DNA of 64,000 bases from a bacterium (lineage in GTDB: Bacteria > UBA8248): contig CBDBZU010000004.1 in the NCBI GenBank assembly GCA_965213625.1, positions 96,001 through 160,000 of the forward strand. The letters are read 5' to 3'. The stretch's first letter is position 1, and every line of letters starts with the position of its first letter. The notes beneath the pieces are model-generated. The model saw only the letters and a program-made list of their open reading frames with translations, ran no database searches and was not told the origin of the DNA. The position numbers and the translations under genes were made by a program. This document shows, piece by piece, positions 25,947 through 43,613 of this stretch.

Positions 25947-27011
25947 ATGGTCATCGAGCGGCGCGTGAGCGCGAAGGCGGCGAGCCCGGCGGAAGAGCGA
26001 ACTTTCACCTCGCTGAGGCCCACGCAGCTTGAAGAGTACGTGGGCCAGACCGACCTGGTGGCGAAACTGCGCATCGCGCTCGAGGCCTCGCGCAGAAGAA
26101 ACGAACCCCTGGGCCACATTCTCTTCCACGGCCCGCCGGGTTTGGGAAAAACCACGCTTTCGCACATCATCTCGGAAGAAATGGGCACGCGCCTCGTCAA
26201 GACCTCCGGTCCTTCCCTCTCCAGACCGGCCGACCTCATGGGAATACTGACGGGCTTACAGCAGGGAGACGTGCTATTCATTGACGAGATCCACCGGATG
26301 CCCAGCGCGGTGGAGGAATTCCTCTACCCCGCAATGGAGGACTACCGCGTGGACTTTGTCGTCGATAGCGGACCCATGGCGCGCACCATCAATTTTCCGC
26401 TCAAGATATTCACGACCGTGGGCGCCACGACGCGTCCCGGCGCCCTGACCGCCGCCTTGAGAGAGCGCTTCTATCTCGTCTACCACGTGGATTTTTATTC
26501 CGAAGAAGAACTCGTGCAGATTCTCCTGCGAAGCGCAGTGCGTCTCGACACCCCGATTGAAGAAGAGGCGGCGCGCGAACTCGCCCGAAGAAGCCGGGGT
26601 ACGCCACGCACGGCGAACAGGCTCCTGCTCTGGACGCGCGATTTCTGCCAGGCGCGGGGCGACGGGGCCATCAGTCTCGCCATGGCGCGTGAGGCGCTCG
26701 CTATGGAGGGCGTAGACGAACTGGGACTGGACGGGCTGGACAGGAAGTATCTGCGGACGATCATCGACCAATACGGCGGCGGCCCGGTGGGGGTGGAGGC
26801 CATCGCCGCCACCATGAACGAGGAGTCCGACACTCTCGTCGACATGGTGGAGCCATTCCTGTTGCGATCGGGTTTCGTACAGAGAACACGCGGCGGGCGG
26901 CGCGCGCCCTCGGCGGCGTATTCACACCTTGGTGTCGCCCTGCCCAAAGGCGTTCAGCGAGAACTTTGGGACGCCAGCGCGACGGATGAGGAAACCGAAA
27001 CATCCCCTTAA
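25947..27011 (+). CDS. ruvB: Holliday junction helicase RuvB
   Basis: LRP..LEEYVGQ, GPPGLGKTT, FIDEIHR, GATTR, SRGTPR and GGPVG motifs. Confidence 0.97.
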   Translation: MVIERRVSAKAASPAEERTFTSLRPTQLEEYVGQTDLVAKLRIALEASRRRNEPLGHILFHGPPGLGKTTLSHIISEEMGTRLVKTSGPSLSRPADLMGILTGLQQGDVLFIDEIHRMPSAVEEFLYPAMEDYRVDFVVDSGPMARTINFPLKIFTTVGATTRPGALTAALRERFYLVYHVDFYSEEELVQILLRSAVRLDTPIEEEAARELARRSRGTPRTANRLLLWTRDFCQARGDGAISLAMAREALAMEGVDELGLDGLDRKYLRTIIDQYGGGPVGVEAIAATMNEESDTLVDMVEPFLLRSGFVQRTRGGRRAPSAAYSHLGVALPKGVQRELWDASATDEETETSP

Positions 27012-27026
27012 GAGGAAAGATCGTAG

Positions 27027-27251
27027 ATGGAGCCTTTCGGCGGTTTTGGGAAAACGCTGATTCTGCTCGGCGCGGTTCTGATGGTCTTGGGCGTGGTGTT
27101 TCTTGTGGCGCCCAAGATTCCGTTTCTGGGGAAACTGCCGGGAGACATACACCTGAAGGGTAAGAACTGGAGCTTTTCCTTCCCGGTCGTGACCTGCATC
27201 GTCATCAGCGTCGTACTGACGCTGCTTTTGAACCTCTTTTCGAGAAGATAA
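27027..27251 (+). CDS. DUF2905 family membrane protein
   Basis: LGKLPGDI and FSFPVVTCI motifs; this family usually follows ruvB. Confidence 0.9.
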   Translation: MEPFGGFGKTLILLGAVLMVLGVVFLVAPKIPFLGKLPGDIHLKGKNWSFSFPVVTCIVISVVLTLLLNLFSRR

Positions 27252-27262
27252 CCTGGCGCGTC

Positions 27263-28027
27263 CTACTTCCACCCCCCGCCGCCGTTTGCGTACACGGTGT
27301 CCGCCGTCATGAACTCACACGCATCCGAACACATGAACAACACAAGTTCGCCAATCTCTTCCGCCGTGCCGAAGCGGCCCATCGGTATCTGAGCGCGCAT
27401 CGACTCCTTGAGTTCCTCCGAGGAGACGTCGTGAAACGGCGTGTCGATGGGGCCCGGTGATATCGACATGCACCGGATGCCCCTGTCCGCAAACTCGCGG
27501 CCCACGCCCATGCTCATCGTCACCACCGCGCCCTTGGCCGCCGCGTAGTGCACCGAGTGGCCCGGCCCCCCGCGCTTGTGGGCCATGCTCCCGATGTTGA
27601 CGATGACGCCACTGCCGTTTTCGAGCATTTCGGGAATCGCGGCCTGCATGCAGTAGAAAACGCCCTTTACGTTCAGATCGAACGTCCGCTCCCACAGGTC
27701 GTCTTCAATGCCCAGAAAATCAGAACGGCGCAGCGCGGCGCCTGCGGAGTTGAGCGAAAAATCGACCCGGCCGAACCGCTCCTTGGCGCGCCTCGTCATC
27801 TCGAACGCTTCTTCGCGCGAGGTGACATCCACCTTCATATGCACGCCCCGGCCACCGTTCTCCGTTACGCGCTCGGCTATTTCGGCGGCGCCTTCCTCGT
27901 CCAGGTCCGCGCAGAAGACGTTGGCCCCCTCGCGCCCGAATATGAGCGAGGTCTCCTTGCCGATGCCGCTGGCCGCGCCGGTGACGATGATAGTTTTTCC
28001 ATTGAAATATTCAGGTGTCTTGGGCAT
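27263..28027 (-). CDS. SDR-family oxidoreductase
   Basis: TGAASGIG, NSAG and YAAAK motifs. Confidence 0.92.
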   Translation of the reverse strand: MPKTPEYFNGKTIIVTGAASGIGKETSLIFGREGANVFCADLDEEGAAEIAERVTENGGRGVHMKVDVTSREEAFEMTRRAKERFGRVDFSLNSAGAALRRSDFLGIEDDLWERTFDLNVKGVFYCMQAAIPEMLENGSGVIVNIGSMAHKRGGPGHSVHYAAAKGAVVTMSMGVGREFADRGIRCMSISPGPIDTPFHDVSSEELKESMRAQIPMGRFGTAEEIGELVLFMCSDACEFMTADTVYANGGGGWK

Positions 28028-28064
28028 CTATGAACTCCAAAAGTTAGAAGAGTCTTTTCCCGGT

Positions 28065-29066
28065 TTACGCGTTCGCATCGGCGGTGATGATGCGCTGCAT
28101 CTCGTATTCCTCATCCGGCACGAGCCCAGGAATCGGCTTGCCCGCCAGGAAGCACAGGACGTTTTCCGTCGCGTCGAGTTCCATCTGCAACCGCGAGGAG
28201 CGCGCACGCGCGCCCAGGTGAGCTGTGAGAATGCAGTTGGGCGCTCCCACGAGGACACCCCGGTAGGGTTCTTCTGGGAAAACGTCGATCCCCGCACCCC
28301 CCAGATGGCCCGAGCGCAGCGCGCGCGCAAGCGCCTCATCGTCCACGATGACGCCGCGCGCCGTATTGATGAGCAAAGCGCCTTTTTTCATCATCTCGAT
28401 TTCGTCTTCCCCCAACATGTGAATCGTCTTCGGCGTAGCGGGTACGTGTAAGGAGACGGCATCGGCGCGCCGGTAGATTTCTTCTTTCTCGGCCCATTGC
28501 ACGCCGTAGCGCTCGCCGAATTCCGCATCGGGAGCCAGGTCGTTCGCGATGATTTTCGCACCGAAGCCGGATACGTGGCGTATCACCCGCTTGCCGATGC
28601 GCCCCACGCCGATGACGCCCAGTGTGATCTCATCGAGCGTGCGGCCCATGTATTGGAGCCACTCTCCGCGCAAAAGCGCGTCATGCGAGTGATGCACACC
28701 CCGCAATAGCGAGAGCAGGAGGCTCAGCGTCAGTTCCGCCACAGCTTCCGAGTTGGCCCCGGGAGTATTCGCAACGAGAATGTCCCGCTCGCGCGCCGCA
28801 TTCAGGTCCACCGTCTCGAGACCCACCGTGGCCCGCGATATGAACCGCAGTCCCTTCGCCAAATCCAGTATCCTCGGCGTGAACGGTTCCAGGCCCGCTA
28901 TGACGGCGTCGAAGCCACCTAGAATCATCTCGGCGAATTCGTCTTCATTCGGCCGCTTGCCCAGCGTGTTGCGCACGTACTCCACGCCCGCGCTCTCGAG
29001 CATCTCGACGGGCTTGGGGTCGATTTCACCGAATGGCGTCGTGGAGACGAGTATGCGGGTAGCCAT
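28065..29066 (-). CDS. Phosphoglycerate dehydrogenase-like 2-hydroxyacid dehydrogenase
   Basis: NTPGAN..AVAE, GVGRIG, INTARG and DVF..EP motifs; no ACT domain. Confidence 0.88.
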   Translation of the reverse strand: MATRILVSTTPFGEIDPKPVEMLESAGVEYVRNTLGKRPNEDEFAEMILGGFDAVIAGLEPFTPRILDLAKGLRFISRATVGLETVDLNAARERDILVANTPGANSEAVAELTLSLLLSLLRGVHHSHDALLRGEWLQYMGRTLDEITLGVIGVGRIGKRVIRHVSGFGAKIIANDLAPDAEFGERYGVQWAEKEEIYRRADAVSLHVPATPKTIHMLGEDEIEMMKKGALLINTARGVIVDDEALARALRSGHLGGAGIDVFPEEPYRGVLVGAPNCILTAHLGARARSSRLQMELDATENVLCFLAGKPIPGLVPDEEYEMQRIITADANA

Positions 29067-29439
29067 GGGAAATCTCCCGAAAAACACGAGAAACAAAACC
29101 AACCCATATAGCGGTTGGTGCAAGAATTATCTCAATGGGTTAAAGTGTTTGAAAACCCAGCGGAGATTATATGCCTCGATAAAGCGCTGTCAAACTCAGA
29201 GAGGCATCTGACAGAATCGAATATCATCCCCCGGTGGTGGAGGTGCGCTTATGCTCATTTGGCGCTCACCCTAAAAGTCGAGCCGGTGAATATATGTGAT
29301 GAAAATCGTCTATAGATGGAGCTTATAATGAATTGAACACGAGATGCGTCGGGCATGTCCTCCCGCTCGGCCCTTTGCAGAACGCCGTCTGGATGATCGA
29401 GGCGAGGCGCTTTTCACCTCGATGAACAGGAGGAATAAA

Positions 29440-30660
29440 ATGTGTCCCAAAACCGCGGCGAGTAAGTCATACGAAACGCTGATGGATCTGAAATACGACA
29501 AAACTATCATCGACAAAATCAAAGCCCTCACGCCACAGATGGCCGAGATGGCGGCCGAGATCGACCGAGAAGGCCGCTTTCCCACCGAGAACTACAAACT
29601 GCTCACCGACGCGGGCCTGAACGCCCTTTGCATCCCCGAAGAATGGGGCGGCTCGGGCGCGAATTCCCTCACCTACAACATGGCGCTCGCCGAACTGGGC
29701 AAGGCGTGCGCCTCCACCGCGCTGACCTGGAACATGCACCAGACCTGCGTGAGCCTCTTTTTCGACCTGGCGAATGAAGAACAGAAAAAACGCGTACTCC
29801 CCGACATCGTCGAAAACGGCAAGCTGTTTTCCTCCGTCACAGCGGAACGCGGCATGAGCTTCCGCCACCTCGTGACGCTCAAGTCCATTTTCTCTCCCGT
29901 CGAGGGGGGCTACCGCCTCAGCGGCAGGAAGATTTCCGCCTCGATAGGCGAGCACGCCGATTATTACTTCACCACGGGGTTTCTCGAAGGGAAGAAGACC
30001 GCTGCCGAGGCCATCATGACCGCCGTGCTCCATAAGGATTACGGAGGTTCATCCGTACAAGTGGTGTGGGACACGATGTCGATGCGGGGAACGGCGAGCG
30101 ACGACATCATTTTTGAGGATACATTCGTGCCGCACGAGGATATCCTGGGAGGTGAGAACTTCATCGGCGCGCTGGGGAAAATCGACATCACCATGTTCCA
30201 CTTAGGCTTTGCCGCCGCCTACCTCGGCATCGCGGAGGGAGCCTACAATCACCTGGTAGAATACGTGAAAACAACGCAATACCCGCCCAACCCCGAACCG
30301 CTGAGCCACAACGAGATGTACCAGAGCAACATCGGCGAGTTGAGCTCCGAGCTCCGGGCCGCGCGGATGCTCCTCTACGAGGCCTGTCACGTGAAGGAAC
30401 AGGGCGACGGCATGGCGAACCAGAACACGGTGAAAACAGTCATGCAGTCCAAATACATTTCGTGCGAGGTCTGCGCCAAGGTGGTGCAGCACGCGATGCG
30501 GCTCGTTGGGGGTCGCTCCATCGCGCGGCGTTATCCCTTCGAGCGGTTCTACAGAGAGGGCATCACCGGCGTGGTGATGCCGCCTGCGAACTCGCGCTGT
30601 ATCGAGGTGGCCGGCTGCATCGAATGCGGGATCACCGGCATGGTACTGCAATACGGCTAG
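29440..30660 (+). CDS. Acyl-CoA dehydrogenase-fold flavoprotein, possibly a monooxygenase type
   Basis: IPEEWGG, STALTWNMH, WDTMSMRGTAS and ERFYRE motifs; no obvious catalytic Glu. AGGAGG RBS before ATG 29440. Confidence 0.8.
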   Translation: MCPKTAASKSYETLMDLKYDKTIIDKIKALTPQMAEMAAEIDREGRFPTENYKLLTDAGLNALCIPEEWGGSGANSLTYNMALAELGKACASTALTWNMHQTCVSLFFDLANEEQKKRVLPDIVENGKLFSSVTAERGMSFRHLVTLKSIFSPVEGGYRLSGRKISASIGEHADYYFTTGFLEGKKTAAEAIMTAVLHKDYGGSSVQVVWDTMSMRGTASDDIIFEDTFVPHEDILGGENFIGALGKIDITMFHLGFAAAYLGIAEGAYNHLVEYVKTTQYPPNPEPLSHNEMYQSNIGELSSELRAARMLLYEACHVKEQGDGMANQNTVKTVMQSKYISCEVCAKVVQHAMRLVGGRSIARRYPFERFYREGITGVVMPPANSRCIEVAGCIECGITGMVLQYG

Positions 30661-30765
30661 GGGGCATCTGCTCCACCACCAAGAGGCGCACGTTTGTCCG
30701 GCGTGAGCCGTGGAAGTTACTGTTTTTCAGGAACCGATCAGAATCGCGACAAGGATTAACAAGTC

Positions 30766-31110
30766 TCATTCCAGCAGCGAAATGGGACGGCGGCCGGCGA
30801 ACCCCGCTTCGTAGCGGTGAAAATGTTCGATGTCGTCTTCACCGAGTTTCCAGCAATAATAATAGCCGTCTCCCGAATCGAAATCCGCCAGCCACAGGCC
30901 TTTGACTTCAACCCCTAAGTTTCTGACGGCCTCGACCCACTCGCCCACCGCGTCGTTCATGAGTCCTTCGAGGCGCTTGACGTCTTGCGACTCCTCGATG
31001 TTTTCCAGTTGTCCGCGCATCTCCTCGACGACGTCATAATAATGCTGCGTCACTTCCTTGACCTGCGGCAGCAAATCGCGGGCTTCCTGCAAGGTAAAGA
31101 TAGCCATCAT
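30766..31110 (-). CDS. DUF2203 family protein
   Basis: FTLQEA..LLP, GVEVKG...DF, CWKLGE..I.HFH and GFAGRRP motifs. Confidence 0.85.
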   Translation of the reverse strand: MMAIFTLQEARDLLPQVKEVTQHYYDVVEEMRGQLENIEESQDVKRLEGLMNDAVGEWVEAVRNLGVEVKGLWLADFDSGDGYYYCWKLGEDDIEHFHRYEAGFAGRRPISLLE

Positions 31111-31226
31111 GGTTCCTTTGCTATAAGTACAGGATTTATCTGCTCTTTCCAGGGACATTCCAGCCCCAATATGCCAGGCGGACGCGAGCCGCTATCATGA
31201 GTCACACCCTTTTGATCGGTGTTTTC

Positions 31227-32387
31227 TCACTCTCCCCGGCGCTGCGAGAATTTTCTCCCGAATATACCCGAGGCGATCACGTTTCGCTGCGCCTGGGTGG
31301 TGCCGCCGCCGATGGTGAACATCCGCACGTCGCGCGCCATGCGTTCGATCGGCAGATCGCGCGAATAGCCCGCGGCCCCGAAAATCTGGAGTGCGTCGTT
31401 CGTCACCTTGATCGAGGCTTCCGCCGAAAACGTCTTGGCGATGGCGGCGAGGTGCATGTCGGGAAAGCCCGACTTTGGATCTTCTTGGACAGCCGCACGG
31501 TGGAGCAGGAGCCGAGCGGCGTCTAGCTGAATGCGTCCATCCGCCAGAATCCACTGAAGCCCCTGGAATTCCGATATCGGGCGCCCGAACTGCTCGCGCT
31601 TTTTTGCATATTCCACCGCCTGCGCAAATGCGCCTTCGGCAAGGCCCAATGCCACCGTGCCGGCCCCCACCCTTTGGGCGTTATAAGCGGCCATCAGGCG
31701 GCCGAAGCCCACCGTCACCAGGTTTTCACTCGGCACACGGCAGTTCTCGAAAATTTCCTCGCTCTCAGGAATTCCTCTCAAACCCATCATGAAGGCGCGC
31801 TCCCCGATGCGGAAGCCCTCTGTTCCCAATTCCACGATCAGCGCACCGATTCCCTGCTCGTCCCCCCCGTGCACCACGCGGGCGAACACGAGGTTGATGT
31901 GGGAGACGCCCGCGCCGGTAATCCACTTCTTCTTGCCGTTCAGGATGTATTCATCGCCGTCGAGCACGGCCCGCGTCGTCATGTCGGTGGCGGCGCTGCC
32001 CGCTTCGGGCTCGGTAATGACGATGGCGGGCTTATCCCCCTGGAGCACCATGGGCAGATACTTCTTCTTCTGCTCCTCGGTCCCGTATTTGATGATCGCC
32101 CCCACCACGCCCATGTTGCTGTCCACCACGATGCGCCCCGTGATGCCGCAGACCTTGGCCATCTCCTCCACCACCAAAACAGCCTCGATGAGCGGGCGTT
32201 CGGGGCCGCCGAATTCCTTGGGGATGTTCATGCCCATAAAGCCTGCATCTGCGAGAATTCGGGCGTTCTCCCAGGGGTATTCCTCGGTCTGGTCCCAGAA
32301 CGCCGCTTTGGGCGCTATCTTGCTGGTGGCGATTTCGCGGGCTTTTTTCTGGATTTCCCGTTGAGAGTCGGTGAGGTCGAAGTCCAC
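31227..32387 (-). CDS. acdA: 3-sulfinopropionyl-CoA desulfinase-like protein (acyl-CoA dehydrogenase fold)
   Basis: Close match, from memory, to AcdA signature segments: EEYPW.N, GRIVVDSN.G, GDKPAI.ITEP.AGSAA, KWITG.GVS, MG.RGIPE, LM.AYNAQRVGAG.VALG, RMFTI.GGT. No ACAD catalytic Glu. Confidence 0.8.
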   Translation of the reverse strand: MDFDLTDSQREIQKKAREIATSKIAPKAAFWDQTEEYPWENARILADAGFMGMNIPKEFGGPERPLIEAVLVVEEMAKVCGITGRIVVDSNMGVVGAIIKYGTEEQKKKYLPMVLQGDKPAIVITEPEAGSAATDMTTRAVLDGDEYILNGKKKWITGAGVSHINLVFARVVHGGDEQGIGALIVELGTEGFRIGERAFMMGLRGIPESEEIFENCRVPSENLVTVGFGRLMAAYNAQRVGAGTVALGLAEGAFAQAVEYAKKREQFGRPISEFQGLQWILADGRIQLDAARLLLHRAAVQEDPKSGFPDMHLAAIAKTFSAEASIKVTNDALQIFGAAGYSRDLPIERMARDVRMFTIGGGTTQAQRNVIASGIFGRKFSQRRGE

Positions 32388-32498
32388 CTCGGCCTCCTTT
32401 CAGTGATAGTGGAGGAAGGCTTGCGAGAATCCGTTATGCAACGACTCGCACGAGCGCGCAAGGGGGGAGTGGGAACCAGCGGGGTGACCCCCTAGGAT

Positions 32499-32581
32499 TG
32501 TAGTTGGGACAACCCTTTTGGGTTGTCCTGCCCCCTATAATTGTCCTTCACGAGGACAGGCACAGGGGCCTGTCCCTACGG
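32499..32581. repeat. REP-like palindrome pair (GTAG family)
   Basis: GGACAACCC-TTTT-GGGTTGTCC hairpin, plus GGACAGGC...GCCTGTCCCTAC, which reads GTAGGGACAGGC... on the minus strand. Confidence 0.55.
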
Positions 32582-32604
32582 AATACGTATGGCCAACCCA
32601 TCTC

Positions 32605-33360
32605 CTACTTCCCCGTAAATCGCGGCGGTCTTTTCTCCTTGAAGGCGCGTACGCCTTCTCCTGCGTCCTCGGTCTCCAGAAGGCGTTTCAGGATCACGTC
32701 GCCGAAGCGAAGGGCGTCTTCCATCGTCATGTCGCGCGCGCGAACGGTGATCTCCTTGATGGCGCGCACCGCAAGCGGCGCGTTCGCCAGGACCTGCCGC
32801 GCGATTTTCTCGGTCTCCTCCAGTACTTTCTCTTTCGGCACCACCTTGTTTACGAGGCCGAGCCTGAGCGCGGTTTCGGCATCGATGGGCTCGCCGGTGA
32901 ACAAATGGTAGTGCGCGAGATTGAAGGGCAGTTGCTTCGCCAACAGAATCGGCCCGCTGACGGAAGAGATGCCGCGCATCACCTGGGGCCAGCCGAGTTG
33001 GGTATCCTCGGCCATCACGCGCACGTCGCAGGAGAGCGCGATGCCTGCCCCGCCCGCCAGACAAAACCCGTTGATCGCCGCGAAGCAGGGCTTAAAAAGC
33101 TCCATGATGACCTGATAGAGGTCGGAAACGGGTTTCACTTCCCTGTCCTCGGGCGGCGGCTCGGTGAGGTCGTGCCCACTGGAGAAGGCCTTTCCGTTTC
33201 CCGTAATCAGACAACCCCACACATTTGGATCGCGCTCCATCTCGTCGAAGAGCGCGAAAATGCGCTCGCTCATCTCGTGGTTGATCGCGTTCATCTTCTC
33301 CGGCCTGTTCAGCGTGATGCAGGCCAGCTTGTCTCTCACTTCATATTCGATCAGCGCCAT
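32605..33360 (-). CDS. Crotonase (enoyl-CoA hydratase/isomerase) superfamily protein
   Basis: ITLNRPEKMNA, FSSGHDL, KP..AAING..LAGG and AFKEKRPP.F motifs. Both usual catalytic Glu positions are substituted. Confidence 0.9.
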   Translation of the reverse strand: MALIEYEVRDKLACITLNRPEKMNAINHEMSERIFALFDEMERDPNVWGCLITGNGKAFSSGHDLTEPPPEDREVKPVSDLYQVIMELFKPCFAAINGFCLAGGAGIALSCDVRVMAEDTQLGWPQVMRGISSVSGPILLAKQLPFNLAHYHLFTGEPIDAETALRLGLVNKVVPKEKVLEETEKIARQVLANAPLAVRAIKEITVRARDMTMEDALRFGDVILKRLLETEDAGEGVRAFKEKRPPRFTGK

Positions 33361-33383
33361 GTCGTTCTCTCCGTTTCATGTGT

Positions 33384-34172
33384 CTAGCCGCCCGGCAGAT
33401 GCGGCATCAGTTCATCGAGCGTCTTGACTTCCAGGTCCGCCGTCACGTCCGGGTCCCCGGCAATCACGCCCCAGCGGTTCACCCATACAGTGTCCATGCC
33501 CACCTTCTGGCCGCCCGCGATGTCCGTTCTCAGATTGTCCCCCACCATCACGGCGTGGCGCGCCTCCACGCCCAGTTCAGCGAGCGCTTCTTCAAAGAGA
33601 AAAGGCTCGGGCTTCCCGAAAAACACCGGCTCCCGGCCAGCCGCCGCCTGAACCGACGCCATGATGGCGCCCCCGCCGAGAGAGAATGAACCGTCCTCGC
33701 TCGGCAATCGAACGTCGGGGTTCATGGCAACGAAATGCGCTCCCCGGCTCACCGCCCGCGCGGCTGCGCTCAGTGTCCGGTAGGTGAGATCCTCATCGAG
33801 ACCGACAAGCACAACATCGGCCTCATCTTCTTCGTCATGCCCCAGTATCTCGAATCCGCCCGATGCGACCGCACGTTTAAGCGAATCCGTCCCCAGCACA
33901 TACGCCCTTCCCGAGCCGAAGTTCTTCCTCAAAAACGAGCCGACCCGGTCCAGCGCGGCCACGATGAGGTTCTCCCCCGGGTCCAAGCCGATTCCCGCCA
34001 TGTGGGCGCGAATTTCCGCAGCCGTGCTGCGGCTGATGTTCGTGATGAAGCGATGGGGGAGGTTTCTCGACTTGATGGCCCGCATCAACTCCCGCCCGCC
34101 GGACATCACCTCGTCTCCGGCGAAGAAGACCCCTTCCAGGTCGAACACGAAAGCCTTTTTGTCATGAAACAT
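33384..34172 (-). CDS. HAD subfamily IIA hydrolase (NagD-like)
   Basis: FDLEGV, FITN, NPD, GKP and VGDNLRTDI motifs. Confidence 0.88.
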   Translation of the reverse strand: MFHDKKAFVFDLEGVFFAGDEVMSGGRELMRAIKSRNLPHRFITNISRSTAAEIRAHMAGIGLDPGENLIVAALDRVGSFLRKNFGSGRAYVLGTDSLKRAVASGGFEILGHDEEDEADVVLVGLDEDLTYRTLSAAARAVSRGAHFVAMNPDVRLPSEDGSFSLGGGAIMASVQAAAGREPVFFGKPEPFLFEEALAELGVEARHAVMVGDNLRTDIAGGQKVGMDTVWVNRWGVIAGDPDVTADLEVKTLDELMPHLPGG

Positions 34173-34182
34173 GACGGGCCCC

Positions 34183-35391
34183 TTAAATCGCCTTGCGTGC
34201 TTTCAGCCTTTCGATTTCCTCATCACTCAGATCGAGCACTTCCATGAGCACTTCTTCGGTGTGCTCGCCCATCAGGGGAGGCGCCGAGGGCGTCGCACCC
34301 CAGGTACCCTCCATCTTGATAGGCGTGTTGAACGTGCGCATCTCGCCGAGTTCGGGGTGGGTCATCTCCACCACCATCTCTCGCGAGCGCGTCTGAGGAT
34401 CGTTGAGCGCTTCGTCGATGCTCTGGATCGGCCCGCAGGGAACGCCGTGCGCCTCGATTCTCTCTATCCAGTGTGCGGCGGTGTTCGTCTTGTAGACTTC
34501 CGATAGCTTGTCGTCCACATATTCTCGATTCTCGAGGCGGGTGGGGCGATCCTTCATCCTCGGGTCGTCCTTCCATTCGGGATGACCCAGCGCGTCGCAA
34601 AGACCATCGAAGAAATGATCCAGAATGGCGTCGAGCACGAGCCACTTGCCGTCCCCGCACTGGTACGCGCCGATGGGAACGGCGGATGCGTGGCCCGTGC
34701 CCATCGGCTTGGCCACGTCGCCCGCCGTCAGATAGTACTGCGAACGGTAGCTTGCGAGATACAACTGGGAATCCAAGAGCGAGACGTCCACCTTCTGGCC
34801 CACACCCGTCCGCTCGCGCTTGTATAATGCCGCCAGAATCCCGTGGGCGGCGAACATGCCCCCGCCCATGTCACCCATGGGAACGCCCAGGCGCACAGGC
34901 GGCCTGCCCGGCTCCCCTGTGAAACTCATGATGCCGCCTCGCCCCTGGATGATGAGGTCGAGCGCGGGCTTATCCTTCTGGGGGCCGGTGAGGCCGTAGC
35001 CGGTGACGGAGGCGCTGATGATGCGCGGATTCACTTTCTTGAGCGTTTCATAATCCGCGCCCAGACGCTCCAAGACGCCGGGGCGATAGTTGTCATAGAC
35101 GACGTCGGAGCGCTTCACCATCTCGCAAAAGACGCGATAGCCCTCCTCGTCCTTCAGATTCAGGAAAATGCCCCGCTTGTTCCTGTTGAGCGCGATGAAA
35201 TAGGCGCTCGTCTCCCCCACGTAGTGCGGCGGCATGGTGCGGACGAGGTCGCCCCTGCCCGGCACTTCTATCTTGATGACGTCCGCACCCAGATCGGCCA
35301 GCACCATGCTGCCGTAAGGACCTGCAAGCAGGGCGGAAAGATCGAGTATGCGCACGCCCTCCAGCGGCTTTTCCAAAACTGATTCCCCCAC
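34183..35391 (-). CDS. CoA-transferase family III (CaiB/BaiF)
   Basis: LAGPY...LADLGADVIKIE, NRNKR, NYRPG and ALDLIIQ motifs. Confidence 0.93.
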   Translation of the reverse strand: MGESVLEKPLEGVRILDLSALLAGPYGSMVLADLGADVIKIEVPGRGDLVRTMPPHYVGETSAYFIALNRNKRGIFLNLKDEEGYRVFCEMVKRSDVVYDNYRPGVLERLGADYETLKKVNPRIISASVTGYGLTGPQKDKPALDLIIQGRGGIMSFTGEPGRPPVRLGVPMGDMGGGMFAAHGILAALYKRERTGVGQKVDVSLLDSQLYLASYRSQYYLTAGDVAKPMGTGHASAVPIGAYQCGDGKWLVLDAILDHFFDGLCDALGHPEWKDDPRMKDRPTRLENREYVDDKLSEVYKTNTAAHWIERIEAHGVPCGPIQSIDEALNDPQTRSREMVVEMTHPELGEMRTFNTPIKMEGTWGATPSAPPLMGEHTEEVLMEVLDLSDEEIERLKARKAI

Positions 35392-35407
35392 GAAAGATGC
35401 GCCGCCG

Positions 35408-35821
35408 CTAAACCGCGCCGGCAGCTGCGTTGTTCCTGATGTATGAGACGACTTCGGTCATTTCCGCATGGTGGTTGAAGACTTCAGCGACGCCTAAGGA
35501 TTTAAGCCCCGCTACGTCACGCTCGAGAATGTTCCCGCCAAAGATAACGAGGCAATCATCGAGGTCCTCTTCCTTGATTCTCGCCATGAGCCTGCGCGCA
35601 ACCCCCATGTAGGAGCCAGAAAGGATGCTCAGGCCGATGACGTCCACGTTCTCCTGGATCGCGACGGCGATAATCTGCTCGACCGTCTGACGAAGCCCTG
35701 AATAGATCACCTCCATGCCGGCGTCTCTCAACGCGTGGATGATGACCTTGACCCCCCTGTCGTGCCCGTCGAGACCCGGTTTCGCCATCAGCACCCGTAT
35801 GCGCTTATTTGTGTTCATCAT
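35408..35821 (-). CDS. Cobalamin-binding small subunit of an acyl-CoA mutase
   Basis: KPGLDGHDRG (DxHxxG), SILSG and FGG motifs; start overlaps the large-subunit stop. Confidence 0.94.
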   Translation of the reverse strand: MMNTNKRIRVLMAKPGLDGHDRGVKVIIHALRDAGMEVIYSGLRQTVEQIIAVAIQENVDVIGLSILSGSYMGVARRLMARIKEEDLDDCLVIFGGNILERDVAGLKSLGVAEVFNHHAEMTEVVSYIRNNAAAGAV

Positions 35822-37470
35822 CAAACGACCGACGGCTCCACGTAGGCCCCGAAAGCGCCGCGCATCACTCCTGTCATCTCCCCCACGGTGAGACGCGCGC
35901 GTGCGGACTCCATGAGATAAGGCACCAGATTCTCTTTCGATTCGCACGCCCTGGCCAGCTTTTCGAGTTGCGCAGCCACCTCGCCCGCATTGCGGGCGGC
36001 CTTCACTCGCGCGAGACGCTCTTTTTGTTTTTCGAGCGCCGAATCGTCCACCTCGTAGAGGCCCTCGCCCGCGCTCATGCGGTCTTCCTCTTCAGAAGTA
36101 AACTTGTTCACCCCCACCCACACCTGCTCGCCATCGGCGATCTTTCGCTGATGCTCATAGGCCTGCCGCGCGAGCAGCCTCTGAATTTCGCCGCTCTCGA
36201 TGAAGGGAACGATCCCTCCGCGCGATTCGTAATCATCCACGATGGCCTGAATCTCCTCTTCCACCTGTCCCGTCACGGCTTCCACCGCATAGCTGCCCGC
36301 CAGGGGGTCCACGGTGTCGGCCACGCCACTCTCATGGGCGATGACCTGCTGAATGCGCAGCGCCGTGCGGATGGACTCGTCCGAGGGAATCTCAAAAGCC
36401 TCGTCGAAACACGCCATGTTCACCGAGCGCGTGCCCCCCATGACAGCGGCCAGTGTGTAGAGCGTCTGGCGCACGATGTTGTTGAGCGGCTCGCGCGCCG
36501 CCATGCGGCTGCCGCAATTGCCGGTCGAGAACTTGAGCTGCATGGTTTTGGGGTTTTTCGCGCCGTATTTCTCCTTCATCGTGCGCGCCCAAATGCGCCG
36601 CGCCGCGCGCAGCTTGCCGATGGATTCGAGCAGGTTGAACGGTCCGACGCCGCCGCCGACCGAGAGGTGAAACGACATCGTGGGCACGAAGTCATCCACG
36701 TGGAGGCCGCGCCCGGTCAGCTCTCGTATGTAGGCCAGCGCGTTCAGGATGGGAAAGGCGACGTCCTGCGCGAGGGTGGCGCCCGTCTCGGCGATGTGGG
36801 TTGCCGAGACGCTGATGGCGTTCACCCGCGGGCAGTGCTTCGCGTTGTACTCGATGATATCGGCCACCAGGCGCATGGAGGGTCTCGGGGGGAATATCCA
36901 CGTTCCCCGGCCGATGTATTCCTTGAGCATGTCATTCTGGAAGGTGCCGCGCAGCTTATCGAGCGCGACTCCCTGGCGCTCGGCGGCGATGAGCCAGAAC
37001 GCCTGGATAATGGCGGCTGTGGAGTTGATGGTGTGAGAGACGCTTACCTTATCGAGCGGTATCCCGTCGAAGACGTCCGCCATGTCCTGGGCGGTATCCA
37101 CGGCGACGCCCAAGCGGCCCACGTCGTCCTGCGCCGTCTCGTCGTCCGAATCCAGGCCGAGTTGCGTGGGCAGATCGTAAGCCATGGAGAGGCCCGTCTG
37201 GCCGTTTCCGAGCAGGAAGTGGAACCGCGCGTTGGTGTCCGCAGAGGTGGAAAAACCCGCGTACTGGCGCATCGTCCACAGCGAACCCCTGTACATCGTG
37301 GGGTATATGCCCCGCGTATAGGGGTATTCCCCCGGCGCGCCGAGCTTTTCCCGATATTCCTCATCCGGCGCGTCCGGCCCATAGACCACGGGCACGGGCT
37401 TGCCCGAGTTGTAGGCCGCTTCGCGGATGGGACGCTCTTTTTTCGCGCCGTTATCCTTGGGCTTAGCCAT
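35821..37470 (-). CDS. Methylmalonyl-CoA mutase-family large (substrate-binding) subunit, divergent active site
   Basis: PGEYPYTRG, WTMRQYAGF, GLSMAYDLPTQ, QND.LKEY and DPLAGSY motifs. Confidence 0.93.
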   Translation of the reverse strand: MAKPKDNGAKKERPIREAAYNSGKPVPVVYGPDAPDEEYREKLGAPGEYPYTRGIYPTMYRGSLWTMRQYAGFSTSADTNARFHFLLGNGQTGLSMAYDLPTQLGLDSDDETAQDDVGRLGVAVDTAQDMADVFDGIPLDKVSVSHTINSTAAIIQAFWLIAAERQGVALDKLRGTFQNDMLKEYIGRGTWIFPPRPSMRLVADIIEYNAKHCPRVNAISVSATHIAETGATLAQDVAFPILNALAYIRELTGRGLHVDDFVPTMSFHLSVGGGVGPFNLLESIGKLRAARRIWARTMKEKYGAKNPKTMQLKFSTGNCGSRMAAREPLNNIVRQTLYTLAAVMGGTRSVNMACFDEAFEIPSDESIRTALRIQQVIAHESGVADTVDPLAGSYAVEAVTGQVEEEIQAIVDDYESRGGIVPFIESGEIQRLLARQAYEHQRKIADGEQVWVGVNKFTSEEEDRMSAGEGLYEVDDSALEKQKERLARVKAARNAGEVAAQLEKLARACESKENLVPYLMESARARLTVGEMTGVMRGAFGAYVEPSVV

Positions 37471-37658
37471 CGTCTACTCCCGCGCAAGGGACCACAAAAC
37501 CACTCTCATATGAGAACGAAAAGTAGCAGAAATTCTCCCTATTGATTATCACACTCTCCCCCCAAGGCCAACGAGAGGGACCTGCGCCCATTGACCCGGA
37601 ACGCCCCGGTGGAGAGAATCGAGAAAAACCCGACACCCCTAAAAAGGAGAACCTAAAC

Positions 37659-38438
37659 ATGAGTCAAACTCTATTCGATCTGAGCGGTGCGAAGGCGCTC
37701 ATTACAGGCGCCGCGCGCGGCATCGGACGTACGCTGGCCGAGGGCTTCGCCGCCGCGGGTGCTGACGTCGCCATCGCGGACATCGACATCGAACCCGCCG
37801 GCGAGGCGAAGGAAGCCATCGAGGGCATGGGCCGCAAGTGCGCGCTCATCCAGGCCGACGTGACCAACATGGAATCGGCCGAGCGCATGGTGATAGAAGC
37901 CGCTGCAGCATTGGGCGGCCTGACCATTCTGGTGAACAACGCGGGCACGAACGTGCGGAAAACGCTCTGGGACATCAGCGAGGCGGACTGGGACAGGATC
38001 CTCGACCTGAACCTGAAGAGCATCTTCTTCATCACGCGGCGGGCGGGTGAGGAGATGAAGAAATCGGGCGGCGGCAAGGTGATCAACATCTCATCCTTGA
38101 TGGGCTGGTCCGTCTTCAGGAACCCCCGGCAACAGTGCTACGGACCTTATACGTCCTCGAAGAGCGGCCTCATCGGCCTGACGCGCGTTTTCGCCCGCGA
38201 GTATGCGACGGACAACATCCAGGTGAACGCCATCTGCCCCACCTTCATCGAGACGGAGCTCACCGCTTCCCTGCAGGAAGACGAACTCATCTACGACGCC
38301 ATCTGCGAGAGAACGCCCATGGGCCGATTCGGACAGATGAGCGAACTGGTGGGGCCGGCCATCTTCCTGGCTTCCGAGGCAAGCAGCCTCGTTACCGGCA
38401 CATCGCTCCTGGTGGACGGCGGGTGGTATGCCACCTGA
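37659..38438 (+). CDS. SDR-family oxidoreductase
   Basis: TGAARGIG, NNAG and YTSSK motifs; AAGGAG RBS before ATG 37659. Confidence 0.92.
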   Translation: MSQTLFDLSGAKALITGAARGIGRTLAEGFAAAGADVAIADIDIEPAGEAKEAIEGMGRKCALIQADVTNMESAERMVIEAAAALGGLTILVNNAGTNVRKTLWDISEADWDRILDLNLKSIFFITRRAGEEMKKSGGGKVINISSLMGWSVFRNPRQQCYGPYTSSKSGLIGLTRVFAREYATDNIQVNAICPTFIETELTASLQEDELIYDAICERTPMGRFGQMSELVGPAIFLASEASSLVTGTSLLVDGGWYAT

Positions 38439-39681
38439 AGAGGGAGAGCGCGTTCTCCTGTTGATGACGACGGCCACCTACCGCGCGTCCGCCTACATGG
38501 CGGCTGCTCAGGAGATGGGCGTGCGGGTCACGGTGGGAACCGACCGGCCCGACCTTCTGGCCGAGTTGAACCCGGGCGGCTCCATTACGCTCGATTACAA
38601 CGAACCCGAAGCGGGCGCGGCCTTTATCAGCTCGTTCGCAAGTCAGTTTCCGCTCGACGCGATAGCGCCTGTGGACGACGACACGCTCATCTTGGGCGCG
38701 ATGGCCGCCGAAGCGCTGGGGCTGCCTTACCACCCCGTTGAGGCCTCCCGAACGACGCGAAGCAAGTACGAACTCAGAAAAGTACTCTCGGAAGAGGGTC
38801 TGCCCTCGCCCTCGTTCCGCCTGGTTTCCGCGCAGGAGGAACCGGAGAAAATTGCAGAGGGCATCCGCTATCCCTGCGTGCTCAAGCCTACCTTTCTCGC
38901 CGCCAGCCGGGGCGTGATTCGCGCGAACGACGAAGCCGAATTCGCAGATGCCTACCGCCGGGTCGGCGCGATACTCGAAGATCCAGAAACCATCGCCCGC
39001 GGCGGCACCGAGGCGGGGATGATCCTGGTGGAGGATTACCTTGAGGGCATTGAAGTGGCGGTCGAAGGCCTCGTCGTCCGTGGTGAGGTGCACATTCTCG
39101 CGATTTTCGACAAGCCCGATCCGCTCGAAGGTCCTTTTTTCGAGGAAACCATCTACGTCACGCCCTCAAGACTGCCGGATGAGACGCAAAACCGTATCCG
39201 CGAGGAAACCGCCCGCGCCGCCCGCGCCATCCGCCTGCGTGAGGGGCCCCTCCATGCGGAGCTGAGAATCAACGATGCGGGCGAAATCCGGGTGATCGAC
39301 GTGGCGAGCCGCTCCATCGGCGGAAAATGCTCGGGCGCGCTCGAGTTCGGGGGCGGCACCTCGCTCGAATGCCTCATCCTCTCCCAGGCGCTGGGCGTTG
39401 CGCCCCCCTCCATGGAGCGTGAGAAAACCGCATCCGGCGTCATGATGATCCCCATACCCGGCGAGGGGGTGCTCAAGAGGGTAGACGGCAAAGAGGAGGC
39501 CCTGGCCGTGCCCGGAATCGTGGAGGTCGACATATCCATCCACATCGGCGGGCGCGTCGTACCGCTGCCCGAGGGAGAGAGATATCTGGGTTTCATCTTC
39601 GCCAAGGGAGAGCAGCCCGAAGAGGTGGAAGCCGCCCTCCGCGCGGCGCATGAGAAACTCCGCTTCGATATCGGAGAATAG
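38428..39681 (+). CDS. ATP-grasp domain ligase
   Basis: YPCVLKP...AASRGV, VEDYLEG.E and HAELR motifs; overlaps the SDR stop. Confidence 0.88.
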   Translation: MPPEEGERVLLLMTTATYRASAYMAAAQEMGVRVTVGTDRPDLLAELNPGGSITLDYNEPEAGAAFISSFASQFPLDAIAPVDDDTLILGAMAAEALGLPYHPVEASRTTRSKYELRKVLSEEGLPSPSFRLVSAQEEPEKIAEGIRYPCVLKPTFLAASRGVIRANDEAEFADAYRRVGAILEDPETIARGGTEAGMILVEDYLEGIEVAVEGLVVRGEVHILAIFDKPDPLEGPFFEETIYVTPSRLPDETQNRIREETARAARAIRLREGPLHAELRINDAGEIRVIDVASRSIGGKCSGALEFGGGTSLECLILSQALGVAPPSMEREKTASGVMMIPIPGEGVLKRVDGKEEALAVPGIVEVDISIHIGGRVVPLPEGERYLGFIFAKGEQPEEVEAALRAAHEKLRFDIGE

Positions 39682-39687
39682 GCCCAA

Positions 39688-39719
39688 AGAAAAAAGGCCG
39701 GCCAAGAGGCCGGCCCTTC
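39688..39719 (-). terminator. Intrinsic terminator downstream of nfuA (between convergent genes)
   Basis: GGCCGGCC stem pair flanked on the left by an A-run, which is a U tract on the minus strand. Confidence 0.65.
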
Positions 39720-39738
39720 ATCTTCCAGTGAGGAAAAC

Positions 39739-40287
39739 TTACTTTTTCGTCGGCGCGTAGTAGGGGTTCGCACCCGAGGCGTGGTCGGTGGTGTCGATCA
39801 CCTGAATCTCGGGGTCGAGCTGCTGCAGGCGCGCCTCGACGCCTGACTTGAGCGTCACGTCCGCCATGCCGCAGCCCGCGCAGCCGCCGCCCATCTGCAC
39901 GAACACGCGCTTTTCCTCTACGTCCAACAGGTTGATAACGCCGCCGTGGGACGCGACGGCCGGGTTGATCTCCGTGTCGATGATCTCCTGAATCTGCTCC
40001 AGGAGGGACGTATCGCCCTCCGTCATCTCGCGCGTCACCTTGAACCCGCTCGTGGGGCCTTCGGTCACGAACTCGATCTGGGCCTTCTCCGCTCTGTCGA
40101 CATGATCGGGCGAGGCGAAGACACCCAGCAGAGGGTTCTCCACCCGGATGTACTCGGCCGCATCCTCATCCTTCACCAGGTCGAGCTTGTAGCCGCCCTC
40201 GAAGCTGATGAGAATTCCGGCGAAGCCCCCGCCGTTTTGCTCCATGATTTCCTTGACTTTACCGGCTGCCGCCTCGGTTATCTTCAT
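39739..40287 (-). CDS. nfuA: Fe-S cluster biogenesis protein NfuA-like
   Basis: Degenerate A-type N-terminal domain, INPAVASHGG, GGCAGCG and TDHASGANPYY motifs. Confidence 0.88.
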   Translation of the reverse strand: MKITEAAAGKVKEIMEQNGGGFAGILISFEGGYKLDLVKDEDAAEYIRVENPLLGVFASPDHVDRAEKAQIEFVTEGPTSGFKVTREMTEGDTSLLEQIQEIIDTEINPAVASHGGVINLLDVEEKRVFVQMGGGCAGCGMADVTLKSGVEARLQQLDPEIQVIDTTDHASGANPYYAPTKK

Positions 40288-40436
40288 GACATCACTCCCG
40301 AATGATTTGTCTCGTATATATGCGCCAATTCCCCATACCCCTCAAGAATACCACGGCGTGCGCAAAAGGCAAAAGATAAAACACATGGCGCAACGAATCC
40401 CAAATTCCGCCGACCCTGGAATGCGTAGATGATTGG

Positions 40437-41294
40437 CTACAGCGGCGTACGCGCCTTGATGTCCTCTTCGGTCACGTCGCCCATGTAGACGTAACCCGTC
40501 TCCTCCACGCTCCCGCTGCCGATGTAGATGCCCACCGCCTCGATGGGATCGGTATCGCTCAGGTTGTGGAGCCAGTGCTCCACCCCTTTGGGGATATAGT
40601 GGAAGTGACCGCCGCGCACCTCGACGCGGTCGGGCCCCGCGCCCGCCAGGCCGTGGCCGCTGATGATGTAGTAAATCTCCTCGCAGTTGTCGTGCCTGTG
40701 CTTCTTGTGAATCGCGCCCGGGAAGAACCGCGCGCGGAACAGCGTCGTATCGCTGCCGTTGTGACTCCCCAGAGGGAGCCTGAAGTCGGTGATCGACCAG
40801 CCTTCGCCCTCGTTCATGTTCTCGGGGGGCACGTCGTCGAGGTGCACGAGGATTCCCTCGGTCAGCCCCTCGCGCGGCATGTCGAGGTCGGCCCGGGTCA
40901 CGTCGCCGTGGAACTCATAGCCCGTGCCCGCCACGCTCGGCGCGCCGAGGTAGAAGCCGACCACCATCGCCTCCTCGTCTTTCGTCTCGTTGTAGAAGAA
41001 ATGCGTCGACCCCTTCGGCATGAGGCGGCAGTGGCCCTCGCGCACCTCGGCGCGTTGGTCGCCCTGGCCGACCACGCCGTTTCCCTTCAGGTAGACCGCG
41101 ATTTCCTCGCACTCGGTATGGAGATGCTTCGCGTGGGTGGAGCCAGGCCGGAAGATGGAATGAAAGACCGTCGTCGAGCTTCCGTGCGCGCCTGTGATGG
41201 GCAGGCGGAACTCCGAGATCGCCCAGCCTTCCTTTTCTTCCATCTTCTCGGGCGTGACGTCGTCGACGTGGATCAGGGGGTATTGAAGCGGCAT
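40437..41294 (-). CDS. Bicupin protein
   Basis: Two internal repeats with HLHTECEE and HRHDNCEE metal motifs and PKG..H motif 2. Confidence 0.88.
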   Translation of the reverse strand: MPLQYPLIHVDDVTPEKMEEKEGWAISEFRLPITGAHGSSTTVFHSIFRPGSTHAKHLHTECEEIAVYLKGNGVVGQGDQRAEVREGHCRLMPKGSTHFFYNETKDEEAMVVGFYLGAPSVAGTGYEFHGDVTRADLDMPREGLTEGILVHLDDVPPENMNEGEGWSITDFRLPLGSHNGSDTTLFRARFFPGAIHKKHRHDNCEEIYYIISGHGLAGAGPDRVEVRGGHFHYIPKGVEHWLHNLSDTDPIEAVGIYIGSGSVEETGYVYMGDVTEEDIKARTPL

Positions 41295-41334
41295 AGACAA
41301 GTTCCTCACAAAATGGATGTTCTACAGGGAATAT

Positions 41335-42207
41335 CTATTCGATAGCGCCCGTTCGCTGTTTCAGGTCTTCATCCGTCACGGGGCCTAAGTATTCAAAGCC
41401 GCTCTCATCGAGTCCGCCCACGCCGATGTACCAGCCCGGCGCCGAGAGGTCTTCGGTGTCGCTGATGTTCGCGAGCCAGTGCTCCACTCCGGCGGGCATG
41501 TAGTTCACGTCGCCTGCGAACACTTCCCCGCGATCTTTCCCGATTCCCGCGAGTCCGCGGCCCTTCAGGATGTAGCAAATCTCCTCGCAGTTGTTGTGGC
41601 GGTGCTTCATGTGCACGGTTTTGGGGCCGAAGTAGCCCTGCATCCAGCACGAGCCCGCCCCGTGGCTGCGGTTGAGCGGCTCGTTGAAATAATCCTGCGT
41701 CCAGCCCTCCTCATGCGATACCTTGACGTGGGGAACCTCGTCGTTGTGAACGAGGGGATGCTGCAGGGCAGCGGCGCTCAGCGTGCGCGGGGCGGTGATG
41801 TCGGCCTCGGTGACCTCGCCCAAATAGACGCGGCCGGTGTCCTTGAAATAGGGAACGCGGTCGTAGAACCCGATGATGACGAGCGGATCGTGCCTGCCCA
41901 GGTTCACGAGCCAGTGCTTCACGCCCTTGGGAATCTGGTGGAAGTGGCCCGCATGCACCTCCACGCGGTCCTCCCCCGCGCCCGCCAGGCCGTGGCCGCT
42001 CACGACGTAATACTGCATCTGGCAGTTCTCGTAGCGGTGCTTGTGGTGGCGATCACCGGGGGCCAGGGTGGCGTGGTACATGATGGAGGAGGAACCCTCC
42101 TTCCCGCTGACGACGACACGGAAATCGGAGACGCTCCAGCCCTCTTTTTCGTCGAGCTTCTCGGGCGTCACGTTGGCGATGCGAATGTATGGGTGCTCAA
42201 AAGACAT
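41335..42207 (-). CDS. Bicupin protein (paralog of the downstream gene)
   Basis: Two repeats, HRYENCQM (degenerate) and HRHNNCEE; GGAGG RBS before ATG 42207. Confidence 0.88.
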   Translation of the reverse strand: MSFEHPYIRIANVTPEKLDEKEGWSVSDFRVVVSGKEGSSSIMYHATLAPGDRHHKHRYENCQMQYYVVSGHGLAGAGEDRVEVHAGHFHQIPKGVKHWLVNLGRHDPLVIIGFYDRVPYFKDTGRVYLGEVTEADITAPRTLSAAALQHPLVHNDEVPHVKVSHEEGWTQDYFNEPLNRSHGAGSCWMQGYFGPKTVHMKHRHNNCEEICYILKGRGLAGIGKDRGEVFAGDVNYMPAGVEHWLANISDTEDLSAPGWYIGVGGLDESGFEYLGPVTDEDLKQRTGAIE

Positions 42208-42238
42208 GACGACCTCCTTGATTTCTGGAGACAAGCGC

Positions 42239-42419
42239 GGGGTTGTTGAAAAACTCCCCCCGAGGAGGGGGTTTGTAGGGGTCACATAGATGCGACCCGG
42301 ATTTTTCACGCCGCCCCCGAACGGGCCGCATGATATGCGGCCCCTACCAAACCAACCCCCCGGCCCCTTGCCACGGGGGTAAAGGCGACGCCCCCTGCGA
42401 GGGCTCTTTCAACATCCCC
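42239..42419. mobile_element. MITE-like element A with internal inverted REP pair
   Basis: Ends GGGGTTGTTGAAAAA / TCTTTCAACATCCCC. Inside are GTAGGGGTCACATAGATGCGACCC and GGGCCGCATGATATGCGGCCCCTAC. Confidence 0.65.
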
Positions 42420-42440
42420 GCCCGCGCAAGTTGGCGGGCG

Positions 42441-43469: not shown

Positions 43470-43613
43470 GAAATTCTCCGCCAGAACATGAGGTTACGTT
43501 TCAGGAAAATTGAGATTCGATTCGCCCCAAGAATACGGCATCGCGCCGATATGGAAAAGCGGGTTTGGTACTAAAACCACAAGCCCGCGAACCACACCGG
43601 AAAGAAATTCTCC

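Follow-up and report, generated by a model that had tools for sequence, protein, structure and literature searches.

The acyl-CoA mutases of known substrate are few: methylmalonyl-CoA mutase (MCM), ICM/IcmF, ECM, HCM/RCM, PCM and IaaGH. Genes for a family III CoA-transferase, a split mutase and an acyl-CoA dehydrogenase (ACAD)-fold protein lacking the catalytic Glu lie together in the iaa operon (PMC8360864). In Variovorax paradoxus, the family III transferase gene act adjoins acdA, with crotonases nearby, and a mutase is mentioned only for the downstream use of propionyl-CoA (PMC6370202). In Escherichia coli, the scpA-argK-scpB-scpC cluster (sbm; succinate to propionate) groups a mutase, a crotonase-fold enzyme and a CoA-transferase. 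Here we compare with these systems a locus of six genes in a 64,000-nucleotide stretch of bacterial DNA (GTDB lineage UBA8248; assembly GCA_965213625.1, contig CBDBZU010000004.1; C4:96001-160000 in genome coordinates), referred to below as the window. The genes encode the large (mutL) and small (mutS) subunits of an adenosylcobalamin (AdoCbl)-dependent acyl-CoA mutase, a family III CoA-transferase, a HAD-IIA hydrolase, a crotonase-fold protein and an ACAD-fold protein of the AcdA desulfinase type. These identities and the common orientation were first proposed in an earlier note on this DNA, and are upheld by the positions of the open reading frames (ORFs) and by domain profiles. The note had joined the genes into one pathway, with the product of the mutase passing on to the desulfinase. 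As judged from sequence comparison, there is an even chance that the locus instead comprises two evolutionarily separable, co-oriented units, a CoA-transferase/mutase pair and an independent 3-sulfinopropionyl-CoA desulfinase. No description of the cluster was found in the literature searched, which covered the desulfinase-mutase link, mutase specificity and the lineage.

The units appear separable because related genomes keep the mutase without AcdA and AcdA without the mutase. Among 23 genomes of the genus, 21 hold an ortholog of the mutase (not G009 or G017) and 20 an ortholog of AcdA (not G001, G015 or G017). Both orthologs are present in 19 genomes, the mutase only in G001 and G015, AcdA only in G009, and neither in G017, which is 79% complete. 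In a genome from another genus (G024, 87% complete), a mutase 78% identical to that of the window is present and an AcdA match was not found. G001 and G009 are both 99% complete. In G001, which is a single contig, mutL, mutS and the CoA-transferase and HAD genes are kept, with a DNA-methylase insertion in place of the crotonase, AcdA, DUF2203 and following ACAD genes. G009 shows the reverse at the same locus, where a single deletion removed mutL-mutS-CoA-transferase and left a 5' mutL stub joined to the decayed remains of the C-terminal part of the CoA-transferase gene. The G009 crotonase gene is in frameshifted pieces, and the HAD (84%) and AcdA (91%) genes are intact. A further genome (G007) is without the crotonase only. 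These presence and absence data argue against an obligate link between the mutase and AcdA. The breadths of the two clades also differ, that of AcdA being much broader than the mutase lineage, and the single pathway of the earlier note is not supported.

Beyond the genus, the CoA-transferase stays with the mutase. The order mutL-mutS-CoA-transferase is kept on two metagenome contigs (L108 and L186), with mutL 56-58% and the CoA-transferase 54% identical to those of the window. A family III CoA-transferase gene adjoining a split mutase, as in an iaa-type module, is found on both contigs and in all orthologous loci. The mutase and the CoA-transferase are taken to form one unit because of this adjacency, because the best in-genome paralog of the CoA-transferase is only 43% identical, and because the two were deleted jointly in G009. 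Contig L186 further carries genes for an MFS transporter, an FAA-hydrolase-family protein, MaoC dehydratases, a crotonase, an ordinary ACAD and a ligase fragment. Deltaproteobacterial relatives of mutL (54-55% identity) lie near genes for a TctABC transporter, an RraA-like protein, a carboxyltransferase, a glyoxalase-fold (epimerase-like) protein, a family I CoA-transferase and an OAD-beta subunit, which is the make-up of a route for dicarboxylate activation, rearrangement and decarboxylation. No AcdA-clade gene was found near mutL relatives of 54-58% identity, and the ACADs present there are only 31-42% identical to that of the window. SDR and ATP-grasp genes were found beside mutL at all loci examined, with identities as low as 68-70% (L022, L103 and L109), and G009 retains them despite its loss of the mutase.

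Several points weigh against two independent units. One pathway would also fit the close packing of the genes from mutL through the crotonase and the occurrence of the complete set here and at 11 other loci, among them G019 (87% identity; crotonase-AcdA gap of ~44 nt). The losses in small genomes (2.9-3.1 Mb) could reflect a dispensable pathway that has recently begun to decay and not independence, and additional Arg residues in mutL could bind a sulfur oxyanion. Contigs from outside the genus (L022, L103 and L109), in the mutase lineage of 77-83% identity, end before the AcdA position. Synteny in the genus was considered as evidence of function and rejected. Collinearity across the genus extends to the whole neighbourhood, ruvB and a long run of upstream genes among it, and conservation of gene order inside the genus is for this reason weak functional evidence.

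Coordinates for the locus are given in Table 1. All six ORFs lie on the minus strand with intergenic gaps, in order, of -1, 16, 10, 23 and 217 nt, matching the earlier description of five genes that overlap or lie less than 25 nt apart and a last gene about 220 nt away. The mutS ORF is listed from 35947, and translation plausibly begins at ATG 35821, with a 1-nt overlap with the mutL TGA (TGATG); mutS orthologs on contigs L021 and L023 start after the mutL stop. In orthologous loci, the spacer between the crotonase and AcdA genes ranges from ~44 to ~1747 nt, as measured between tblastn edges. Its first hairpin in the window is a dispersed repeat, and the label REP-like (for repetitive extragenic palindrome) given to it earlier is fair because its 18-mers recur up to 14 times in the genome and a loose pattern has 56 matches. 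The repeat family of this lineage, dispersed genome-wide, has the palindrome GGGACAGGC-N-GCCTGTCC. The 217-nt spacer has a folding energy of -84.5 kcal/mol (z = -2.45). Scans for promoter and terminator consensus sequences gave counts near the shuffled expectation, with no site called inside the gap, and an Rfam scan of positions 27000-41000 gave zero matches, hence no cobalamin riboswitch was found there.

Table 1. Positions in the window of the six-gene locus, its spacer and the adjoining divergent genes.
Feature	Position	Strand	Basis
mutL, AdoCbl acyl-CoA mutase large subunit (549 aa)	35821..37470	-	PF01642 586 bits; TIGR00641 594 bits
mutS, small B12-binding subunit (~137 aa from ATG 35821)	35408..35821	-	PF02310 76 bits; TIGR00640 125 bits
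Family III CoA-transferase, SUGCT-like	34183..35391	-	PF02515 442 bits
HAD-IIA hydrolase, Glu at motif I D+2	33384..34172	-	TIGR01460 142 bits vs cut-off 100
Crotonase-fold protein without both hydratase glutamates	32605..33360	-	PF00378 178 bits
217-nt spacer, dispersed palindromic (REP-like) repeat and second hairpin	32388..32604	.	Repeat counts, folding
AcdA-type ACAD-fold protein	31227..32387	-	NF042439 551.5 bits vs cut-off 600; 431 bits to 5af7/5ahs
SDR (ORF from 37542, domain from ~residue 45) and ATP-grasp ligase-like gene	37542..39681	+	Pfam matches; divergent from mutL

The mutase belongs to the MCM superfamily, with a PF01642 barrel in mutL and the DxHxxG motif present as GLDGHDRG in mutS. 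Residues of mutL were mapped by alignment to P. shermanii MCM (1req). At 1req positions 89, 197, 207, 244 and 370, the Tyr, Gln, Arg, His and Glu residues are kept (Y70, Q178, R188 and H225 of mutL for the first four). Tyr89, Gln197, Arg207 and His244, whose identities were checked in 1req, are the carboxylate and thioester-carbonyl ligands of MCM, and mutL has this ligand set of MCM proper. The pocket positions 243, 328, 330 and 366, with identities taken from the alignment, are all altered: Tyr243 to Thr (T224), His328 to Ser (S315), Gln330 to Gly (G317) and Asn366 to Ala (A353). The pocket segments accordingly read Ser-Thr-Gly for His328-Ser-Gln330 and Asn-Met-Ala for His-Thr-Asn366, and the pocket of MCM proper is not present. 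In addition, mutL has a five-residue insertion (GGGVG), reads CGSRMAARE where canonical enzymes have AGSxLTAQQ, and has two additional Arg residues in the 311-327 segment. Every ortholog of 77-100% identity carries this residue signature unchanged. On NF006944, a model built on the fused 721-aa form, mutL scores 514 against a cut-off of 876.

The genome holds three further large-subunit paralogs, which we call parA, parB and parC. In parB every canonical MCM residue is present, and by sequence the window mutase is distinct from the housekeeping MCM because this canonical copy lies elsewhere in the same genome. The altered residues and the canonical paralog together bear out the prediction that the mutase is other than an ordinary methylmalonyl-CoA mutase. 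At C4:388927-391516 the parC gene directly adjoins MeaB, and its product is HcmA/RCM-like, with Ile in MRQIAGF, Asp in STDFD and Gln for Arg207; it is probably a 2-hydroxyisobutyryl-CoA-type mutase of the symbiont lineage. The parA product (C4:3359870-3361420) is non-canonical, with AGAH for GYH, GVVCGG for HSQTAG and FTC for HTN. Among solved structures, mutL matches HcmA best (4r3u, 453 bits; 358-382 bits for MCM structures) and shares the split architecture of HcmAB. An HcmA-like assignment was nevertheless rejected because the marker residues of 4r3u and parC, Ile (MRQIAGF) and Asp (STDFD), are Tyr and Ala in mutL and because parC is the HcmA-like copy. Neither the HCM pair (Ile/Asp) nor the ICM pair (Phe/Gln) is present, mutL having Tyr, Ala and Arg at the MCM Tyr89, Ala116 and Arg207 positions.

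A mutase tree, built with a quick IQ-TREE search only, places mutL and its homologs in one clade of 18 rows (98 in the Shimodaira-Hasegawa-like approximate likelihood ratio test, SH-aLRT), with MCM-, ICM- and HCM-like rows outside. The window lineage sits on a long stem (0.57), and the successive sisters of the clade are a Chloroflexota mutase (L063) and parA. The clade is marked by F-S-T-G (positions 328-331) and N-[ML]-[AP]-C (364-367), which are common to 120/120 of the best database homologs. A search of 5.8 billion proteins returned only about ten 90%-identity clusters at 69% or greater identity to mutL, and the next relatives are at 57%. None of the best 120 mutL database homologs has a name beyond generic ones, and no NCBIfam equivalog covers mutL or the four clade members tested. 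The L063 locus (L063:9923-15592, from a Chloroflexota metagenome-assembled genome, MAG) encodes a divergent mutase (QGH, ANGAGAP), a small subunit, MeaB, a family III CoA-transferase and a crotonase; it is a second mutase-transferase-crotonase layout, with a CoA-transferase 43% identical to that of the window. One genome (G039; 550 contigs, 3.1 Mb) has 26 matches to the mutase large subunit, which is unusually many.

The last gene encodes what is probably a 3-sulfinopropionyl-CoA desulfinase. Aligned to the Advenella AcdA structure 5af7, the protein is ~57% identical by reading of the alignment, with GRIVVDSN for GRITVDSN and GGG for AGG. It has the ACAD fold and an Arg at the position of Arg84 in AcdDPN7, and the catalytic Glu is absent. 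These features and the score of 431 bits against 5af7 sustain the AcdA-like identity proposed earlier, Arg84 and Gln246 being functional residues of AcdA. The score on the NF042439 equivalog is below its cut-off (Table 1). The Arg of GRIVVDSN, the Gln of NAQR and the GGG that replaces the dehydrogenase YEG are conserved across aligned homologs of 59-98% identity. Those homologs that carry labels are named Tectomicrobia, SAR324, Chloroflexota and Rokubacteria, and two are named 3-sulfinopropanoyl-CoA desulfinase by JGI. The locus resembles the AcdA/Act modules of Advenella mimigardefordensis and V. paradoxus in an ACAD with the Arg and without the Glu and in a family III transferase and crotonase nearby. 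It differs from them in an ACAD that falls under the equivalog cut-off, in a transferase that follows the mutase in evolution, in having no Mdo nearby, and in its mutase, none being described as belonging to that module. A second ACAD-fold gene at 29344-30660 (+) is divergent from acdA-DUF2203 and matches AcrC at 163 bits. It shows a weak likeness to SfnB and DszC, flavoenzymes of sulfur acquisition (117 and 108 bits, far under the cut-offs) and was lost with AcdA in G001.

The CoA-transferase is a full-length family III protein, matching PF02515 at 441.6 bits over profile positions 1-366. It contains a GDMGGG segment, which would be the equivalent of the formyl-CoA transferase catalytic Asp. 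Its best PDB match is human SUGCT (succinate-hydroxymethylglutarate CoA-transferase; 9br7, 284 bits), and it reaches no NCBIfam equivalog cut-off. The CoA-transferase, split B12 mutase and Glu-less ACAD resemble in architecture the iaa operon of Aromatoleum aromaticum (IaaL/IaaGH/IaaF). Unlike in the iaa operon, the ACAD here is of the AcdA branch and not of the IaaF branch, it is separable from the mutase, and the locus lacks the ligase and hydantoinase-like genes of iaa.

The HAD and crotonase proteins also depart from their families. Motif I of the HAD protein is D-L-E-G-V, with Glu at D+2 in place of the DxD pattern, and the TN, GKP and GDxxxTD motifs are present. DLEGV or DIEGV is conserved in 15/15 HAD orthologs, down to 55% identity. 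The gene is single-copy in the genome and is kept in both G001 and G009, and the Protein Atlas gives only generic HAD-IIA clusters for it. Aligned to 5zai, the crotonase has Gly and Gln in place of both hydratase glutamates, as do 11/11 orthologs, and the protein does not have the residues of a hydratase. The crotonase is thus a predicted non-hydratase, for which decarboxylation can only be suggested. Its identity to E. coli ScpB is 28%, and it scores 134 on NF008506 against a cut-off of 257. Its His63 aligns with ScpB His66 and ScpB Tyr140 is unmatched, these two being key residues of the methylmalonyl-CoA decarboxylase ScpB/YgfG. The claim of altered active-site residues in four proteins thus stands for the mutase, HAD, crotonase and ACAD, the absence of Glu from the ACAD being normal for AcdA. 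The locus shares with the E. coli scp cluster its grouping of a mutase, a crotonase-fold enzyme and a CoA-transferase. It differs in that ScpA is a fused canonical MCM (42% identical) and in that the window cluster does not include MeaB/ArgK. ScpC is annotated as a propionyl-CoA:succinate CoA transferase and is, we presume, a member of another CoA-transferase family. The crotonase is absent on contigs L021 and L023 and fragmented on L106. On the first two, from small-genome relatives, a DNA methylase and an extra ORF are inserted at differing points (L021:14401-16550 and L023:17072-19194), and the L021 insertion coincides with the loss of the genes from the crotonase through the second ACAD.

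Within the 64-kb window no MeaB, epimerase or carboxyltransferase gene was found. This agrees with the earlier statement that epimerase, MeaB and propionyl-CoA carboxylase are missing there, and MeaB, epimerase-like and carboxyltransferase genes sit elsewhere on the chromosome (C4:390719, C4:2997556, C4:314916 and C4:3914845). Genome-wide counts are 4 for mutase large subunits, 26 for ACAD-family matches, 19 for family III CoA-transferases and 19 for crotonases. A TauE/SafE-family anion exporter gene (21975-22718, +) adjoins an amidohydrolase gene, and a sulfatase gene lies at 8459-10276 (+); the exporter and sulfatase genes are set apart from the cluster by the housekeeping genes yebC and ruvCAB. 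On the other side, a long co-oriented run (39739-49634, -), collinear across the genus, includes genes for a GntR regulator, an M24 peptidase-like protein, an HMGL-like synthase/lyase, an arylmalonate-decarboxylase/EutA-like protein, an FrsA-like esterase, a zinc-dependent alcohol dehydrogenase, two bicupins and NifU. An NCBIfam search of the neighbour proteins returned generic names only. The related contigs in public data belong to MAGs under the names Nitrospinota or Candidatus Tectomicrobia, and several have sponge-metagenome labels.

We propose the following scheme for the two units. The first would consist of mutL, mutS and the CoA-transferase, and in this genome is predicted to be co-transcribed with the HAD and crotonase genes. 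The SUGCT-like CoA-transferase would load CoA, most likely from succinyl-CoA, onto a carboxylated acid of the substituted-succinate type. The AdoCbl mutase would then interconvert the substituted succinyl-CoA with the isomeric substituted malonyl-CoA, as IaaL and IaaGH do with phenylsuccinyl-CoA. The Glu-less crotonase might decarboxylate or otherwise process the product of the mutase. The second unit, acting independently of the first, would be the AcdA-type desulfinase, which by its likeness to the Advenella enzyme would convert 3-sulfinopropionyl-CoA to propionyl-CoA and sulfite.

In an explicit form of the organosulfur route of the earlier note, sulfino- or sulfosuccinate would be activated with CoA and rearranged by the mutase to a (sulfinomethyl)malonyl-type CoA ester, which the crotonase would decarboxylate to 3-sulfinopropionyl-CoA for conversion by AcdA to propionyl-CoA. 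Such a route would use four of the five enzymes in a chemically sensible order. It agrees with the co-orientation and mostly tight spacing of five genes, with the occurrence of all the genes in the window and at 11 other loci, including G019, with the intact features of AcdA, and with a TauE-family gene 9 kb away. The mutase also keeps its anion clamp and has gained two Arg residues in the 311-327 segment. Against this stand the natural variants, in which the mutase occurs without AcdA (G001 and G015), AcdA without the mutase and CoA-transferase (G009) and the locus without the crotonase (G007). Mutase relatives at 54-58% identity have no AcdA-clade gene nearby, and the synteny in the genus is general collinearity. 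The HAD protein has no part in the scheme, no thiol dioxygenase gene is found in the window, and the genome has a single CDO-family match, a weak one of 34.9 bits lying ~1 Mb away. On balance the route is unlikely.

The gene set might also serve ordinary catabolism of 3-sulfinopropionate and propionate, in which an Act-like CoA-transferase using succinyl-CoA and 3-sulfinopropionate would supply AcdA, AcdA would make propionyl-CoA, and the mutase, as an MCM, would regenerate succinyl-CoA. Adjacency of act and acdA is known in V. paradoxus (PMC6370202), the equivalents of mutase Tyr89, Arg207 and His244 are kept, and PCC-beta and epimerase-like genes occur elsewhere in the genome. This role is remote given that the canonical parB is already present, that positions 243, 328, 330 and 366 are all changed, and invariantly so, that the CoA-transferase travels with the mutase and not with AcdA, and that the window holds no MeaB, epimerase or carboxylase. 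The least probable of the explanations weighed here is a biosynthetic one, in which the mutase and CoA-transferase would provide an unusual building block, a substituted malonyl- or succinyl-CoA, in the way that ECM-like mutases serve the warheads of actinonin and matlystatin. An ECM-type biosynthetic mutase is in print (PMC5719088), sponge-associated Tectomicrobia are described as rich in secondary metabolism, and an ATP-grasp ligase-like gene is a constant neighbour. The 64-kb window yielded no polyketide synthase, nonribosomal peptide synthetase or other core gene of biosynthesis, and the neighbours of related mutases look catabolic, with transporters, ACADs, hydratases and decarboxylase subunits. 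A separable CoA-transferase/mutase pair and desulfinase is the best reading of the locus.

What ties the mutase to sulfite release is adjacency in a single genus, and the natural gene-loss variants count against this link. That a cobalamin carbon-skeleton mutase acts on sulfino- or sulfosuccinyl-CoA, followed by decarboxylation by the crotonase and desulfination by AcdA, is very unlikely; if true, it would be the first B12 carbon-skeleton mutase with a sulfinate- or sulfonate-bearing acyl-CoA as its substrate and would give sponge symbionts a B12-dependent route for organosulfur acids. The analysis delimits a large mutase clade with its own active-site signature, a conserved CoA-transferase partner and only generic public names. 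The window lineage is the most divergent branch of this clade and comes from uncultured MAGs, several with sponge-metagenome labels. Because its members have generic names only and no specific NCBIfam model matches them, the clade is a defined target for substrate discovery.

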